A stretch of DNA of 32,000 nt from Hyphomicrobiales bacterium (lineage in GTDB: Bacteria > Pseudomonadota > Alphaproteobacteria > Rhizobiales > Rhodomicrobiaceae): assembly GCA_033764775.1 (NCBI GenBank), contig JANRIQ010000030.1, positions 109,701 to 141,700 of the forward strand. Direction: 5' to 3'. Of this stretch, positions 2,772 to 26,158 are shown one piece after another; the first letter of the stretch is position 1, and every line of letters starts with the position of its first letter. The position numbers and the translations under genes are program-made. The notes under the pieces are model-generated. The model saw only the letters and a program-made list of their open reading frames with translations, did not search any database and was not told the DNA's origin.

Positions 2772-3065
2772 CGCCAGCCGCGTCAGTTGGGCACGCGCGC
2801 GCCTGTGGTGGCGAAGGCGGCGTCCGTCGTTTTCTGCACGTAGGCTTCGAGCGCGACGGCCATGCCCACGGCGAGCGCCCCGGCGACGACTATGGAGAGC
2901 AAAAACGGTTTCATTGCGCGATCTCCCATTGGCGAATGTGCTTGCATAAGTCTTACCAAGCCGAGGCCGAGATGTCATCCTTCACGGCGCCTGCGCGCCC
3001 GCTTGATCGCTCTTGCGGGGCGCGGCGTGCGCCACTATGGTGCGGGGATGCGCCAAGCGCGGTCA

Positions 3066-3157
3066 GGAGTGGTGGCTGAGAGGCCGAAGGCACTCGTTTG
3101 CTAAATGAGCGGGCTCAGAAATGGGTCCCGGGGGTTCGAATCCCCCCCACTCCGCCA
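3066..3157 (+). tRNA. tRNA-Ser (anticodon GCU)
   Basis: Hand-folded cloverleaf. Acceptor GGAGTGG/CCACTCC. D arm GCT-GAGAGGCCGAA-GGC. Anticodon stem CTCGT/ATGAG with loop TTGCTAA (anticodon GCT at 3100-3102). 20-nt long variable arm. T arm GGGGG-TTCGAAT-CCCCC. Discriminator G and encoded CCA. Confidence 0.9.
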
Positions 3158-4774
3158 CTTCGGTATAAAACCGGGAACGCCGATTCCCGCCGTTTTCCCT
3201 CCCTTAGTAGCTACCAGCGTCCTCAACAGGACGCTTTTGCTGCCTTTGAGATAGATCGCGTCATCCGCGACCTCGACGTGCTGGGCGAAGGCCCGGACGT
3301 GTTCCCGCCGATAGCCGCCCTTTCCGAGCCGGAGCCGGGTGCGGGCTTCGCTCGCCAGTTCCCGCACGGCCGCGCCTGTGAGGCCCTGATGAGCCGCGCT
3401 TTTCAGCATGGCCTCGGTCCTTTCGGCGTCGGCCCGCGCCTGATCCCGAAGCGCCGTGAGGCCCGCGATGCGCTCGCCAAGGGCGGACTCGGCTGGGTCG
3501 AGCGAACCGGCTTCAATGGCGTCATAGAGACGCTTTAGGCGCATGTCGGCCTCGGCCGCTCGCTGGTTCAATTCTGCGATGTGCTGGCTGCGCCGCTCGA
3601 CGCTCTCCTGCCGGCGGTCCAGCAGCGAGGCGAGCACGTCTTCGATCCGCTCGGGGTCCAGTAGCCTTTCCTCGATATGGCTGACCACGATGCGGTCGAG
3701 CTTGTCCATGGGGATCGCACGGCCCTTGCAGCCGGTGTCACCCTGCCGCGCCCGGATCGAGCAGGCATAATAGCGATAGCGGCCGTTCTTGCCGGTGCGC
3801 AGCGTCATCGCGCCTCCGCAATTGCCGCAATGGCAAATGCCGGTCAGCAGGTTCGGGCCGCTGACGACGCGCGGCGGCGTCACCTTCGGATTGTTCACCT
3901 GCAAGCGCCTCTGCACGGCCTCGAATATCTCAAGGTCGATCAGCGGCGGCACGGGGACGGTGACGATTTCTTCCTCGGGCTTCACCTCGCCCTTTTTGGA
4001 GCGGCGATTGAAACGATGCTCACCGATATAGGTGCGGCGGGTCAGGATGCGGTGAAGCTGGCCGATGCCCCAACGTCCGCCGCTGCGGGTGAACATGCGG
4101 TTCCTGTTCAAGTAGCTGACGATGTTCTTGACGCCCATGGGGCCGGACGTGCCGTCGCCTTCCGTTGCAAGGCGGAAGATCAGCCGCACGGTGTCGGCGT
4201 GCAGCGGGTCGATTTCCAGCTTCTTCTTCATCTTCGCGCCGCGCTGCTCGGCATCGACGACACGGTAGCCGATGGGCGGCAGGGAGCCGTTCCAGAAGCC
4301 TTGCCGCGCGTTTTCCTTCAACGCCCGAATGACGTGCTTGCCGTTCTCCTTGGACTGGTATTCGTCGAACAGCGCCATGATCTGCCGCATCATGACGTGC
4401 ATGGGATCGTCGCCCATTTCCTGCGTGATGGAGACCAGCTTGACGCCGTTTTTGGCGAGCTTCCTGACGTTGAACTCCAGCTCGAAGTGATCGCGGAAAA
4501 AGCGGCTGAACGAATGGACCACAACCACATCGAAGGGCGCGGGCTTGGACGTGCCTGCCTCGATCATGCGTTGAAACTCGGGGCGGCGGTCATTGGTGGC
4601 GGACGCGCCGGCTTCCACGAAGGTTTCGACAAGCTGGTAGCCGCGCGACTGGCAATAGGCTTCGCCCTGCTTGCGCTGGTCGGGGATCGACACGTCATGC
4701 TCGGCCTGCCGCGTCGTGGAGACGCGCAGGTAGAGCGCGGCGCGCAAGGCGACATGAGGACTTTGCATATTCAC
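3101..4774 (-). CDS. large serine recombinase (ICE integrase candidate)
   Basis: It has an N-terminal resolvase catalytic domain (ALYLRVSTTRQ, VVVHSFSRFFRD), a recombinase domain, a Cys-rich zinc ribbon (CHCGNCGG...YYACSIRARQGDTGCKG) and a long coiled-coil tail. GTG 4774 lies 6 nt after AGGAGG (alternative ATG 4768). The TAG stop at 3103-3101 sits in the tRNA-Ser anticodon loop. Confidence 0.9.
   Translation of the reverse strand: MNMQSPHVALRAALYLRVSTTRQAEHDVSIPDQRKQGEAYCQSRGYQLVETFVEAGASATNDRRPEFQRMIEAGTSKPAPFDVVVVHSFSRFFRDHFELEFNVRKLAKNGVKLVSITQEMGDDPMHVMMRQIMALFDEYQSKENGKHVIRALKENARQGFWNGSLPPIGYRVVDAEQRGAKMKKKLEIDPLHADTVRLIFRLATEGDGTSGPMGVKNIVSYLNRNRMFTRSGGRWGIGQLHRILTRRTYIGEHRFNRRSKKGEVKPEEEIVTVPVPPLIDLEIFEAVQRRLQVNNPKVTPPRVVSGPNLLTGICHCGNCGGAMTLRTGKNGRYRYYACSIRARQGDTGCKGRAIPMDKLDRIVVSHIEERLLDPERIEDVLASLLDRRQESVERRSQHIAELNQRAAEADMRLKRLYDAIEAGSLDPAESALGERIAGLTALRDQARADAERTEAMLKSAAHQGLTGAAVRELASEARTRLRLGKGGYRREHVRAFAQHVEVADDAIYLKGSKSVLLRTLVATKGGKTAGIGVPGFIPKWRSGGDSNPRDPFLSPLI
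3172..3196 (+). terminator. weak terminator-like hairpin just 3' of tRNA-Ser
   Basis: CGGGAA-CGCCGA-TTCCCG (6-bp stem) is followed by CCGTTTT. It lies inside the 3' end of the recombinase ORF on the other strand. Confidence 0.3.
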
Positions 4775-5160
4775 GACCGGCCTCCTTTCGCCGTGCGGCG
4801 TTCTATCAGCGGCAATTCCAGCTCCACGCGGTCATGCAGCACTTTGGGAACGACCTTCTGGCCCTCGCCGGGGTCCATGCGGATCAGGCCGTAGCTCGCC
4901 ATCTTTTTGAGGGTTCGGGACAGGCTGGGCTTTGCCCGCCCCGTGATCCGCGACAGTTCCTCCAGCGAACCGGGCGACTGCTCGTCGATGACGCGCAGCA
5001 GCTCGCGGTTCCCGCTCGAAAGGAGCTGCGCGAAGGATTCCATGGATGTGAACCACACCTTCGGATCGTCGGCCGCCGGCTTTTCCTCGCCGCGCGCGAT
5101 CCGCATGGTGCGGGCCTTCATCTCGTCATAGCCGGCAATCCCGACTTTCAATGTGGTCAT
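4771..5160 (-). CDS. winged-HTH DNA-binding protein (antitoxin-like / MarR-like)
   Basis: 129 aa. The stretch WFTSMESFAQLLSSGNRELLRVI...LEELSRITGRAKPSLSRTLKKMASYGLI reads as a wHTH. ATGA-type overlaps occur with both neighbours. Confidence 0.6.
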   Translation of the reverse strand: MTTLKVGIAGYDEMKARTMRIARGEEKPAADDPKVWFTSMESFAQLLSSGNRELLRVIDEQSPGSLEELSRITGRAKPSLSRTLKKMASYGLIRMDPGEGQKVVPKVLHDRVELELPLIERRTAKGGRS

Positions 5161-5510
5161 GTTACGCCTCGCTCCTTCAACACCGCATCCACCGCCTGCC
5201 AGAAGTCGGCCAGCAGCGTGGCCGCATCCTCGTAGGCGTAGGGCTTCACGGTCTGGAAGCGATGCCGATGGTCCATCGGCTCGCCCCTCCTGCCTCGGCC
5301 GACCGGATGGGCGTTATCGAAGCCGACCAGCCGTTCGCCCGAAGGCCCGTGAAGCGTGAGCGAGTAATCGAGGCCGTGCGGCTTCTCCGGCGATGCCGGA
5401 ACGCGGGTGACAATGAACTTCACCCAATGGCCGCCCTCGGGATCGACAACGAGCACCTGTCCGTCGAGGTCCAGAAGCGTGTCGAGGCTCGGGTCACGAT
5501 CCTCGCTCAT
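5157..5510 (-). CDS. small protein resembling DUF6516/TumE-like toxin family (tentative)
   Basis: 117 aa, with protein-like composition (HWVKFIVTRV...YSLTLHGPSGERLVGFDNAH). The family call is from recollection only. ATGA overlaps occur on both sides. Confidence 0.45.
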   Translation of the reverse strand: MSEDRDPSLDTLLDLDGQVLVVDPEGGHWVKFIVTRVPASPEKPHGLDYSLTLHGPSGERLVGFDNAHPVGRGRRGEPMDHRHRFQTVKPYAYEDAATLLADFWQAVDAVLKERGVT

Positions 5511-5827
5511 GACTTACTGTTACCATGCGGTGTTAACGGTGGCAAGTCCTGAGCGTCAGGATCGTCGATTGGGCCGAACAGCCGGTCGAGCACGTCGCCG
5601 AAATACCGCTCGAAGATTTGCAGTTCTTCCTCAGTGATCGGCACCTTCTCGGGCCAGTCGTCGAAGACAGGCAACGACTCCACATCGACGATGCGAAGCG
5701 GCGAACTGCGGCGCTCCCGGCCGTCCGGCGTGGGTTCGTCGGCATAGTCGAAAAGATCGTCGGGAAGTGTCTCGGGGACCGGCTGTCGCGGTCGCCCTTT
5801 GCGGGCACGGCGGCGCTCTGCGCACAT
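5507..5827 (-). CDS. hypothetical acidic protein, first gene of the recombinase operon
   Basis: 106 aa. AAGGAGG lies 5 nt upstream of ATG 5827. The protein is acidic (DDWPEKVPITEEELQIFERYFGDVLDRLFG) with no domain recognised. Confidence 0.6.
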   Translation of the reverse strand: MCAERRRARKGRPRQPVPETLPDDLFDYADEPTPDGRERRSSPLRIVDVESLPVFDDWPEKVPITEEELQIFERYFGDVLDRLFGPIDDPDAQDLPPLTPHGNSKS

Positions 5828-5880
5828 GGAATCCTCCTTGGTTCGGTGTGGATTCCGGGGCGCTCAAGGCCCCGGAATTA

Positions 5881-5950
5881 GGCGAACCATGGAGGGCAGT
5901 CGGCGGCGTGTAGCGTGCCGCATTTGCGCCTATGCGCTGGCGGCACCCCT
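5881..5950 (-). promoter_or_regulatory. copy A of conserved nested-hairpin leader/operator element
   Basis: Copy A is about 90% identical by hand alignment to 25748-25817, and the 40-nt block 5910-5949 is identical to 25777-25816. It contains GTGCCGC-ATTT-GCGC-CTAT-GCGC-TG-GCGGCAC. It is followed toward the gene by hairpin 5852-5878, then SD and ATG. Confidence 0.5.
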
Positions 5951-5963
5951 GCCGGGATGGGAC

Positions 5964-6185
5964 TTAGCTTGCGGCGCGTCGTGCCTTGGCGAAACCGCGA
6001 TCCGTAGCGATAAACCGCTCCAGCATGGGCACGATCAGCCTGACGGGATCGGCGGCGGGCTGGCCGCTCTCGCGGGCCAGCACCTCGGCATAGGCGACCA
6101 GATCGCGGTGAAGCGGTGCGGGCAGTTCTACCGTCACCTTGACGGGCTTGTCGTCGGGCAACGGGCCGAGTTTGAGCTTGGTCAT
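5964..6185 (-). CDS. DUF2274-like small protein downstream of trbI
   Basis: The internal ATG at 6185, 2 nt after the trbI stop, gives 73 aa (MTKLKLGPLPDDKPVKVTVELPAPLHRDLVAYAE...), typical of the small gene following trbI. The longer 156-aa ORF overlaps trbI and is Arg-rich. Confidence 0.75.
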   Translation of the reverse strand: MTKLKLGPLPDDKPVKVTVELPAPLHRDLVAYAEVLARESGQPAADPVRLIVPMLERFIATDRGFAKARRAAS

Positions 6186-6187
6186 GG

Positions 6188-7324
6188 TCAACCTCCTGCC
6201 GGCTCGAACACAAGGTCGCGGGTGACGATGATCCTGACCGGGAAGCCGGGCCGGATGGTGAGCGTCGGCGCGACCTGCAACTGGCGCTGAACGATCTGCT
6301 GGCCGGCCTGATTGACGGTATCCTGCGCACCGTCGCGGATGGCCCGGATAAGCCGGTCCTCGTCGCTGGTCGCCAGCTCCGTCCCGACCGCGAGCAGCGT
6401 GGACAGCCCGGCCGCCTTCATCAGATCCCACCAATGATAATCGACGCCATCCTCAAGGCCGGCGTAGCCGCTGGCGTCCGCGCCCGGCAGGCGCTCCAGA
6501 ACGATGGAACGACCGCCCGGCAGGATCAGGCGATTCCACACCAGCAACACGCGGCGCTGGCCGAAGGTCACACCATTATCGTATTGGCCGATGATGCGCG
6601 TTCCCTGCGGGATCAGGAGCAGCGAGCCGGTTGGGCTGTCATAGACGTTCTCCGTCACTTGCGCTGTGATCTGGCCGGGCAAGTCGGAACGGATGCCGGT
6701 GATGAGCGCGGCCGGGATCACGGCCCCGGCCTGAAGGATGTAGGGTGAAGCCGGCGGCGCGACACGATCCGGCGCGACGGTCTGCCGGTCCACCGGCCCG
6801 TTGAGAAACGCTGTATGCCGGTCCTGCGTCGCAGGCTGTCCGCCGAGGCCGAGACCGGCAAGGCCGGGCATGGCCGACCCTGCCGGCGCTCCCGTGCGCG
6901 GGCCGGACTGGAAGAAGACGTTGCTCAGGCGCGCGGCTTCTTCCTCGGCGCGGCGGCGTTCCTCTGCGGGATCGACGGCGGGCGTCGCCATGACGGGCGG
7001 CGCGACGGGCTGTCCCCTGTTCTGCGCATCAAGGATCGGGCGGCCGAGATCGCCGGGCAACGCGGGGCCGAGCACCGGGCCGGTATAGTCGCGCGGGAGG
7101 CCGGACAATCCGTCCGCCGTGGGCCGGTTCTCGGTCGAATAGAGTTCTTCGGCTCCCGGCCCTGCATCGCGGGTCTGGAGCGCGTAGATTAGTGCGCCCC
7201 CTATGCCGAGAAGCGCGGCAGCGCCAACGCCTGCCAGCATCTTGCGGGACAGGCGGGTGACGCGGGGCGGCTCGGCGCGCAGCCGCATGGGCGCAGTGGT
7301 ATCGGTGATTGTATTGTCTGTCAT
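6188..7324 (-). CDS. trbI: conjugal transfer protein TrbI (VirB10-like)
   Basis: 378 aa with an N-terminal TM segment, a Pro-rich linker and a C-terminal VirB10-type beta-barrel region (...LLIPQGTRIIGQYDNGVTFGQRRVLLVWNRLILPGG...). Confidence 0.9.
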   Translation of the reverse strand: MTDNTITDTTAPMRLRAEPPRVTRLSRKMLAGVGAAALLGIGGALIYALQTRDAGPGAEELYSTENRPTADGLSGLPRDYTGPVLGPALPGDLGRPILDAQNRGQPVAPPVMATPAVDPAEERRRAEEEAARLSNVFFQSGPRTGAPAGSAMPGLAGLGLGGQPATQDRHTAFLNGPVDRQTVAPDRVAPPASPYILQAGAVIPAALITGIRSDLPGQITAQVTENVYDSPTGSLLLIPQGTRIIGQYDNGVTFGQRRVLLVWNRLILPGGRSIVLERLPGADASGYAGLEDGVDYHWWDLMKAAGLSTLLAVGTELATSDEDRLIRAIRDGAQDTVNQAGQQIVQRQLQVAPTLTIRPGFPVRIIVTRDLVFEPAGG

Positions 7325-24936: not shown

Positions 24937-25433
24937 GGGTCGATCCTGCGGCGATGAAGCCAAGCGGCATGTCGCTCGGGCGTGTAGGCGTGCGGCTCCA
25001 GATTGGCGGTCAAACGGTTGTGGACGTGCCGCCAGTGGTCCGGCGAGGCGTCGGCCGGATCGAGGCCGAGCGATTCCACGGCGTCGATAGCGGCAAGCGC
25101 GCGCTGCACCTTGGGCCAGCTATCGAGGCGCAACAGGATTTCGCCGCCGGGGCGCACGAACGGCAATGTCTGGAACGGCTCGCCGCGACCGATGGCGCGC
25201 ACAATGTCGATGCGCGAAATGACAGTGCCGTGCTCGCCGCTCGCCCATCGCACGAAGGCAAAGACGCCGCCCGGCGCGAAGCCGACGACGCTGCGGCGTC
25301 GGTCGATGATCTGCTCGTAGCTCTTGCGGCCGAAGCGTATCCAGTGCTCGACCTTGCGTTTCTCGAACGTCAATTCGACCAATGTGGTGAAGGGCGCGGG
25401 TCCATGCGCGCCGCGATGCGCGCGCCGGCTCAT
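24933..25433 (-). CDS. DUF2840-like protein
   Basis: 166 aa (LVELTFEKRKVEHWIRFG...). Position and sequence are typical of the DUF2840 gene in this ICE class. There is an ATGA overlap with the upstream HTH gene. Confidence 0.75.
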   Translation of the reverse strand: MSRRAHRGAHGPAPFTTLVELTFEKRKVEHWIRFGRKSYEQIIDRRRSVVGFAPGGVFAFVRWASGEHGTVISRIDIVRAIGRGEPFQTLPFVRPGGEILLRLDSWPKVQRALAAIDAVESLGLDPADASPDHWRHVHNRLTANLEPHAYTPERHAAWLHRRRIDP

Positions 25434-25699
25434 TGTTCGTTCCGTTCTTCGGGGGTGAGCGGACGCGCGGGAAAGACGGTGCCAGCGGTCTTGTCGCGGG
25501 TGGATTTGCGCTCGCCGGTCGCGCTCCAGTCTTCCAGATCGCGGACGGTGTAGAGGACGCGACCGCCGACCTTGCGATAGGTCGGGCCGGTCCCGTAGGT
25601 GCGATGCTTCTCAAGGGTGCGGATGGATATGCCGAGGAAGCGCGCGGCTTCCTTGGTGCGCAACAGGCGCGGCGGCAGGCCCGCAAGCGGGTTGGGCAT
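25430..25699 (-). CDS. excisionase-family HTH protein (RdfS-like recombination directionality factor / AlpA-like)
   Basis: 89 aa. The stretch LLRTKEAARFLGISIRTLEKHRTYGTGPTYRKVGGRVLYTVRDLEDW is a MerR/excisionase-type wHTH. GGAGGTG lies 4 nt upstream of ATG 25699. It is the first gene of a translationally coupled operon. Confidence 0.75.
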   Translation of the reverse strand: MPNPLAGLPPRLLRTKEAARFLGISIRTLEKHRTYGTGPTYRKVGGRVLYTVRDLEDWSATGERKSTRDKTAGTVFPARPLTPEERNEQ

Positions 25700-25747
25700 G
25701 GATCACCTCCAGTCGGGATTGGGCTGCCGGGGGCGGCAGCGGACTGT

Positions 25748-25817
25748 GGCGAACCATGGCGAGGGATCGGCGGCGCGTAGCGTGCCGCATTTGCGCCTAT
25801 GCGCTGGCGGCACCCCC
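25748..25817 (-). promoter_or_regulatory. copy B of conserved nested-hairpin leader/operator element
   Basis: See copy A. The nested inverted repeat is at 25782-25813. The downstream hairpin is at 25723-25740 (GCTGCCG-GGGG-CGGCAGC), followed by SD and ATG. Confidence 0.5.
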
Positions 25818-26158
25818 CTCGGGCGCGGCGTGGCGAATAGTGAGGGATACCACCGGCTCGATGCCTGCCGCGCCGAATAGGCAAAGACAATCGCACGCCG
25901 TTCGGCTAAGAGTGGCAGCGGAGCAGACGCGCTGCTCTGGGGCGTCGAAACCCCTGACTAGTGGTTGTTGCCGGCCGAAACGGCAACGCACTCCTTGACC
26001 TATGGTCGGGGAGCCTGTGGCGTATACAACAGGCTTTCCGAGCTAAAGGCCATGGGGCCGTCTAGTCACGGTTTCGAACTCCCCGATCACCAAGAGTCAG
26101 AGAGAATCGTTTGCGGGGGCGCACCGCAAGCAAACTTTCTCGGATGTGGGGAAAGACT

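Follow-up and report, generated by a model that had tools for sequence, protein, structure and literature searches.

The recombination directionality factors (RDFs) of large serine recombinases (LSRs), such as SPbeta SprB, phiRv1 Xis, TP901-1 Orf7, Bxb1 gp47 and phiC31 gp3 (PMC12286644, PMC11795197), have no common sequence or fold and bind the recombinase where its DBD2 joins the coiled coil (PMC12286644). Toxins of the TumE (DUF6516) family stop the growth of E. coli, inhibit translation and are neutralised by neighbouring genes; their partners are diverse and usually encoded upstream of the toxin (PMC10584680). The integrative and conjugative element (ICE) ICEMlSymR7A has a tyrosine integrase, and its excision is under RdfS/FseA control, RdfS being a DNA-binding RDF (PMC11963761, PMC10359603). 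Here we analysed a locus that can be set beside all three systems, in a 32,000-nt stretch of the Hyphomicrobiales bacterium contig JANRIQ010000030.1 (hereafter the window). On its minus strand, three small open reading frames (ORFs) encode an acidic protein of 106 aa (ORF1, 5507-5827), a TumE-family protein of 117 aa (5157-5510) and a winged helix-turn-helix protein of 129 aa (wHTH, 4771-5160), and run into the gene for an LSR of 557 aa, the ICE integrase (3101-4774). We consider it reasonably likely that in this part of the window a Trb-type ICE has its integration/excision operon, with two independent units ahead of the LSR gene. On balance, we favour a reading in which ORF1 would be a cofactor dedicated to the LSR, probably its directionality factor, and the TumE-wHTH pair would be a facultative toxin-antitoxin (TA) cassette that stabilises the element.

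ORF1 resembles the described LSR RDFs in being small and in being encoded on the same element as an LSR with a DBD2 coiled coil, and there is no shared sequence family. Those RDFs generally lack both synteny with the integrase and conservation, whereas ORF1 is strictly syntenic, often co-translated and conserved throughout a clade; moreover, ORF1 is predicted to be mostly disordered, and its RDF role is that of a candidate. The TumE-wHTH pair agrees with the TumE-TumA superfamily (DUF6516/PF20126; Durairaj et al. 2023, PMC10584680) in its Pfam match, its conserved residues, its bicistronic arrangement with a small DNA-binding partner and the existence of autonomous cassettes. It differs in that the toxin gene comes first, whereas the partners in that study were mostly upstream, and in that the partner is an HVO_A0114 winged-helix protein, the presumed toxin carries an insert of 8-13 residues, and the pair lies inside an integrase operon with zero spacer on either side. 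The element shares its backbone with ICEMlSymR7A (Trb type IV secretion system, DUF2274, RdfS-like HTH_17 gene, DUF2840, TraF and DUF2285 activator), and a common promoter box stands ahead of its rdfS-like operon and its ORF1 operon; unlike in ICEMlSymR7A, the integrase is a serine recombinase and is preceded by ORF1 and a TA cassette.

ORF1 and the neighbouring large serine recombinase

ORF1 has an isoelectric point of 4.5; its residues 1-16 are basic and include KGRPR, and the remainder is acidic. Its features are the basic GRP (AT-hook-like) N-terminus, the motifs LPDDLFDY and DDWPExVP(I/V)T, and an amphipathic helix at residues 66-84. The preliminary description of this DNA had called the protein acidic and without a recognisable domain, and this held in database searches: no family of Pfam, NCBIfam, PADLOC or PHROGs matched it, the best E value against PDB sequences was 0.45, and the ESM Atlas gave unnamed clusters only. 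All 322 homologues were likewise unnamed, with a near-constant length of ~105-108 aa. A profile search of 1.8 billion representatives (E <= 1e-3) returned 469 clusters, none of them with a Pfam family. Most of these clusters were short forms of 65-90 aa ending just past a shared core, which consists of LPDDLYDY, the GRP motif, DDWPExVPVTEAE and then a helix, FEAWFGDxLDELFG. The GRP motif was kept in long and short forms at differing positions, and the strongest conservation was in the acidic DDWP-helix core, not in the basic motif. An AlphaFold 2 (AF2) model from ORF1 and 20 homologues had a mean confidence (pLDDT) of 64, with a single helix at 66-84 and otherwise disorder, at low confidence. 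ORF1 is the long form in a new family without a name, whose members are small, acidic and largely disordered. Being the first gene past the promoter and translationally coupled to the next, it could be read as a mere leader that delivers ribosomes downstream and whose product has no function. This is extremely improbable, given the conservation at the protein level, with invariant residues over 20 diverse members, the dN/dS of ~0.3-0.7 against diverged loci, and the persistence of the motif in all those clusters and down to 37% LSR identity.

The most regular property of the family is its neighbour. In a scan of one genome per species, ORF1 gave at least 501 matches, from which 80 loci were returned as our main set (loci are given L numbers). 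In all 76 of these with enough downstream sequence, ORF1 was followed on the same strand by wHTH and LSR matches, the LSR of L054 being a fragment only. Among 401 sampled Alphaproteobacteria, the ORF1 family occurred in 17 genomes and the LSR clade in 19, and the LSR lay directly downstream in 14 of the 15 ORF1-family loci fetched with flanks; a second sample gave the same arrangement in eight of 10 further loci. Two weak matches to the ORF1 profile (E ~1e-3) directly preceded LSRs of 39-40% identity. Three intact LSRs (37-46% identity) had no ORF1-profile match, and each was adjoined at its start by an ORF of 80-89 aa with the same C-terminal acidic strand-plus-helix motif, two of these ORFs overlapping the LSR gene by 4 nt; a fourth such LSR (G251) was broken and was left out. 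In nearly all loci examined, ORF1 preceded the LSR either directly or with one TA cassette in between. The pairing was seen in several element types, short forms occurring beside unrelated backbones (MobA/TraA relaxase, HipA, Fic, IS110), and the position before this LSR clade was the only consistent property of the family.

ORF1 and the LSR also varied together. Pairwise distances of ORF1 and LSR correlated with r 0.86, against r 0.56 for wHTH and LSR, though wHTH lies between the two (51 distinct operons, 1275 non-independent pairs). The ORF1 core (residues 46-88) correlated best with the coiled-coil segment of the LSR (r 0.84); the weakest correlation was with the catalytic domain (r 0.49), which was also the least variable part of the LSR in this set. 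The co-variation fits co-evolution of ORF1 and the LSR.

In loci in which a short ORF1-like gene directly precedes the LSR gene, the two were in a common frame in eight of 10 cases (L127, L129, L130, L131, L134, L135, L136, L138), separated by one stop codon and 7-20 open codons. A programmed read-through that would give an ORF1-LSR fusion was considered and set aside, since these related loci do not agree on the stop codon, which is TGA in some and TAA in others. Genuine in-frame ORF1::LSR fusions were found as four singleton metagenomic proteins (P0276, P0277, P0281, P0284) and lend weak support, of the Rosetta-stone type, to the link. We also modelled the natural read-through of L129 with AF2, in which one TGA lies between the ORF1-like gene and an LSR 76% identical to the window's; the alignment mixed four paired read-throughs with unpaired homologues, and the model carried no predicted aligned error. 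In the model the LSR looks standard, and its DBD2 holds a long helical hairpin; numbered along the fusion, helices 454-501 and 510-537 come after the zinc-ribbon strands and before further DBD2 elements. The ORF1-like part had a helix at 56-74 and a short strand at 43-46 (pLDDT ~85), the latter absent from the model of ORF1 alone. Together with the Zn_ribbon_recom match, this model indicates that a coiled coil is inserted into the DBD2 of the LSR, the region at which RDFs dock.

Described RDFs of serine integrases are small, have no structural relationship to one another and dock where DBD2 meets the coiled coil (PMC12286644), and ORF1 is the constant neighbour of the LSR, which makes it the obvious candidate; a role in recombination directionality, raised in the preliminary description as an alternative, fits the evidence for ORF1 alone among the three small proteins. 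We infer that ORF1 would use its conserved DDWP-VPVT-helix core to bind the LSR, most probably in the zinc-ribbon/coiled-coil region, and would act as an RDF. When the rdfS-type promoter fires, LSR and cofactor would be made together and excision would be favoured, so that ORF1 may decide whether the mobile element excises itself.

Several points weigh against this role. Synteny and mirror-tree correlation can come from linkage alone. The L129 fusion model, the sole test of its kind, gave a modest signal with a predicted template modelling score (pTM) of 0.40 and returned no contacts. A few ORF1-like genes (L101, L102, L133, L144, L152) had no LSR within the sequence in hand; L133 (G240) and L144 (G756), like L090 (G240) below, come from unpublished genomes, and our claims are independent of them. 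The RdfS-like HTH_17 protein of the same ICE (25433-25699) could be the directionality factor instead. Finally, if RDF and integrase are made from one promoter, integration in a recipient cell needs further explanation, possibly a faster decay of the disordered cofactor or expression of the LSR from within the cassette.

An alternative that we regard as rather unlikely is that ORF1 is an LSR-linked accessory other than an RDF (a DNA-architectural or target-selection factor acting through its GRP motif, an integrase inhibitor, or an operon regulator) and that the RdfS-like HTH_17 protein controls direction. The retention of the GRP motif in both forms would suit it, as would the retention of the RdfS-like gene behind the same promoter box, and some transposon or cassette LSRs are thought to be RDF-independent (PMC12286644). 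On the other hand, conservation peaks in the acidic core and not in the basic motif, and ORF1-LSR pairs also occur in elements in which no promoter box was found.

If ORF1 is indeed an RDF, the consequences would be practical. Serine integrases are genome-engineering tools whose reverse reaction is limited by cognate RDFs that are hard to find (PMC12286644). A conserved, integrase-adjacent candidate is directly testable, and with so many matches among species-representative genomes the ORF1 family could yield many orthogonal integrase-cofactor pairs.

The TumE-wHTH cassette and the slot before the integrase

The 117-aa protein, previously described as DUF6516/TumE-like, matched the TumE model PF20126 (33.3 bits, cut-off 23.4; E 4.8e-8) over residues 27-107. 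Its residues H45, Y49, D65, N66, D80, H81 and H83 were invariant in an alignment of 11 sequences, made up of this protein, three closer relatives and seven canonical TumE from Alphaproteobacteria, and the insert lies between the DN and DHxH motifs. The 129-aa protein, likewise recognised from the start as a winged-HTH protein, matched HVO_A0114 (PF25212; 64.7 bits, cut-off 27.6; E 6.7e-18) and also general winged-helix and MarR-type models, not HTH_17. It further matched phrog_11214, of unknown function, over its full length (E 5e-22), so that this type of protein is also phage-borne.

Stand-alone pairs were sought with PF20126 in the 401 Alphaproteobacteria, and 1.5 kb of flank was fetched on each side. 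This search did not recover the window's own TumE and therefore undercounts, and it served only as a source of stand-alone pairs. It gave TumE -> HVO_A0114 cassettes in the same gene order as in the window (L085-L097, L099), and no ORF1 or LSR match lay beside them within the flanks. The canonical stand-alone TumE is ~95 aa long and is followed in each case by a partner of ~115 aa; the one partner scanned (L087) was an HVO_A0114 match. Three stand-alone pairs are closer to that of the window, with TumE/wHTH identities of 73%/60%, 62%/55% and 41%/35%.

From these matches and the stand-alone pairs, we think it fairly probable that TumE-wHTH is a type II TA cassette of the TumE/TumA type with the toxin gene first; the preliminary description, too, had taken the pair for a cassette of the TA type. 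TumE would be toxic, wHTH would neutralise it as a TumA-type antitoxin, and the pair would stabilise the element by post-segregational killing. One caution applies to this assignment: toxicity and neutralisation were demonstrated for six gammaproteobacterial pairs of a subcluster other than the window's (PMC10584680), and the window's TumE is a divergent subtype, marked by its insert, with a partner that differs from those of the six pairs.

TumE was gained and lost in the manner of a mobile cassette. TumE was present in 58 of the 80 related loci and missing from 22. In 19 of these 22 operons, only 17-28 nt separated ORF1 and wHTH, and L056 and L057 kept an 87-nt remnant of the first and last tumE codons, that is, a deletion scar. 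After loss of TumE, wHTH was retained with its 4-nt overlap onto the LSR gene intact. On the LSR tree, presence of TumE needs at least four changes, whereas on the wHTH tree rooted with the stand-alone pairs it needs only two, a nested clade of 20 TumE-less proteins (support 100/98) and the recent deletion in L056/L057; the wHTH and LSR trees disagree. With two changes on the rooted wHTH tree, the ancestral form of this operon probably had the pair, with TumE lost later. Between diverged lineages and the window, protein identity was 85-98% for TumE, against 51-67% for ORF1 and ~70-75% for the LSR, and dS was 0.1-0.4 for TumE against 0.5-1.4 for the flanking genes. The tract of high identity comprises tumE and roughly 120 nt from the 5' end of the wHTH gene, with a sharp drop at the end of ORF1. 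These patterns suggest that the tumE/5'-wHTH tract has been exchanged between ICE lineages. Positions 11, 34 and 38 of wHTH differed systematically between operons with and without TumE, and wHTH of L056, with its recent deletion, kept the residues of the TumE-containing operons; this would fit a role of the three positions as toxin contacts.

In other elements, the place between the ORF1-like gene and the LSR gene held different TA genes. On the Methylosinus plasmid pOB3b3 (L100) it was occupied by Phd and then VapC, the VapC stop overlapping the LSR start by 4 nt; L126 and L132 had the same Phd-VapC pair, and L128 had HigB-HigA. It was empty, with the LSR gene following directly, in L124, L129-L131 and L134-L138. 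It was also empty in L127, where a TumE-wHTH pair lay upstream of the ORF1-like gene. A Paracoccus plasmid had MazE-MazF ahead of a different LSR. The Phd-VapC and HigBA inserts (L126, L132, L128) brought their own intergenic region of ~60-90 nt with a palindromic, operator-like sequence, e.g. TACATGTAGTCACATATGTCTACATATG; unlike them, the TumE insert is without any spacer. From these neighbourhoods, the slot between ORF1 and the LSR is a generic one, filled by unrelated TA families or left empty.

These comparisons bear on the preliminary description, in which the three small genes formed one module. The tripartite reading was rejected on the gene-neighbourhood survey, and we now consider it very unlikely that the three are an obligate unit, whether a tripartite TA system with ORF1 or a three-protein recombination module. 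The chain of 4-nt overlaps in the 58 loci would be expected of such a unit. Yet ORF1 stands beside the LSR without TumE or wHTH, or with Phd-VapC or HigBA in place of the pair; TumE-wHTH pairs stand without ORF1 or LSR; the 22 operons without TumE have wHTH alone; and in L127 the TA pair is upstream, not downstream, of the ORF1-like gene. The preliminary description had asked whether the trio always accompanies this recombinase clade. ORF1 is the constant partner of the clade; TumE-wHTH also occurs free of recombinases, an outcome that had been named there as one that would refute the proposal.

It could also be that wHTH, not ORF1, is the working partner of the recombinase, as a directionality factor or dedicated regulator, with TumE hitch-hiking. 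Its retention in the clade that lost TumE, still overlapping the LSR gene, would speak for this, and RDFs with a winged helix are well established among tyrosine recombinases (PMC11963761). We consider it unlikely all the same: many ORF1-LSR loci lack wHTH or have VapC or HigA in its place, its closest relatives are the partners of TumE in stand-alone pairs, it tracks LSR distances poorly, and the wHTH and LSR trees conflict. As for an RDF of the Xis/RdfS type, the matches of wHTH are to HVO_A0114 and MarR-type models, and the HTH_17 protein of this ICE is encoded by the other gene, at 25433-25699. In the reading that we prefer, with ORF1 as the cofactor and the pair as a TA cassette, wHTH would autoregulate the operon and, by way of the 4-nt overlap, pass ribosomes on to the LSR gene. 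Such regulation and translational coupling would explain why wHTH survived the loss of TumE.

ICEs and genomic islands carry TA modules for maintenance, the SXT-type ICEs being an example, and the cassette of the window resembles these in being carried by an integrating conjugative element. It differs in occupying a fixed slot of the integrase operon, which unrelated TA families fill in sister elements, and in the translational coupling of its last gene to the integrase, in both the TumE-wHTH and the Phd-VapC versions. The locus is a clear natural example of unrelated TA cassettes swapped in one integrase-operon slot, with a deletion scar and a recombination tract, and is of interest for the spread of addiction genes and the stabilisation of mobile elements. 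More tentatively, and with clearly less confidence than in the cofactor role itself, we suggest that ORF1 founds a conserved, syntenic RDF family for an alphaproteobacterial clade of serine integrases and that the slot is a recurrent landing site for TA genes, whose autoregulation and coupling might set a cofactor-independent supply of integrase and so wire addiction into the decision to integrate or excise.

Operon structure, promoter box and integration site

On the minus strand, the order is the end of the Trb-type conjugation cluster (TrbI, 6188-7324), a small DUF2274-like gene (5964-6186), a gap of 136 nt, the three small ORFs and the LSR gene, whose product has Resolvase, Recombinase and Zn_ribbon_recom domains. 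The junctions TCATGAGC, ACATGACC and TCGTGAAT are each a 4-nt stop/start overlap, which confirms the chain into the recombinase gene that had been reported; the stop of wHTH overlaps the GTG start of the LSR gene at 4774. The overlaps were retained in almost all of the 80 related loci, far more than expected by chance, and the wHTH/LSR overlap there was mostly ATGA.

The gap upstream of ORF1 contains a block of ~75 nt that is nearly identical to the block preceding the rdfS-like gene, in keeping with the duplicated rdfS-type leader noted earlier. By alignment with 25700-25835, the copy at 5852-5950 (minus strand) is a putative rdfS-type (FseA-box-like) promoter element. Of 78 related Trb-ICE loci, 70 had the box 80-84 nt ahead of the ORF1 start; no short-ORF1/LSR locus of another element had it, and it goes only with the long form, in ICEs of the Trb type. 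A sigma-70 promoter scan of 3000-6300 gave zero sites, which is uninformative for a GC-rich alphaproteobacterium. Contigs of four metatranscriptome studies included relatives at 90-99% identity that span the whole operon and bridge every gene junction; as assembled contigs, they can neither prove a transcript nor exclude DNA carry-over. Apparent skips from 5509 to 5717 in these contigs probably reflect a divergent middle part of the relatives' ORF1, not a deletion.

The 3' end of the LSR gene overlaps a tRNA-Ser(GCT) gene on the opposite strand (3066-3157, plus strand; ARAGORN), the integration target at the end of the element. The LSR ORF ranged from 541 to 1217 aa among loci L005-L084, as expected if it crosses the attachment site into host DNA, and the C-terminus looks as if fixed by the host DNA beyond that site (3101-3157 in the window). 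Other ICE genes in the window encode the RdfS-like HTH_17 excisionase-type protein, DUF2840, an S26 peptidase (TraF-like), DUF736 and a DUF2285/RovC-type activator. The RdfS-like gene has been kept although the integrase is a serine recombinase; its product may act in directionality, in transfer control or in both.

Occurrence in other replicons

A TrbI-DUF2274-ORF1-TumE-wHTH-LSR block with ~82% DNA identity was found on IncR KPC plasmids of clinical Enterobacterales; its four-gene part is present on KPC plasmids from both Enterobacter and Klebsiella of clinical origin. Among them is pKPC_CAV1176 of Enterobacter hormaechei (L001, NZ_CP011661.1), and similar matches occur in Klebsiella oxytoca and on Brevundimonas plasmids. 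Brevundimonas pBH3a carries the four-gene block among resistance genes and without trb genes. Operons identical or near-identical to alphaproteobacterial ones were found in a Nitrospira metagenome-assembled genome (L014), which is possibly mis-binned, and in Modicisalibacter (L040; Gammaproteobacteria, Halomonadaceae); either a wide host range or artefacts of binning could account for these occurrences. A contig of Kaistia adipata carries two operon lineages ~30 kb apart (L020 and L076). Chromosome 1 of Allorhizobium sp. Av2 carries two ORF1-TumE-wHTH-LSR copies (L058, L059), which encode identical proteins and lie 2.26 Mb apart.

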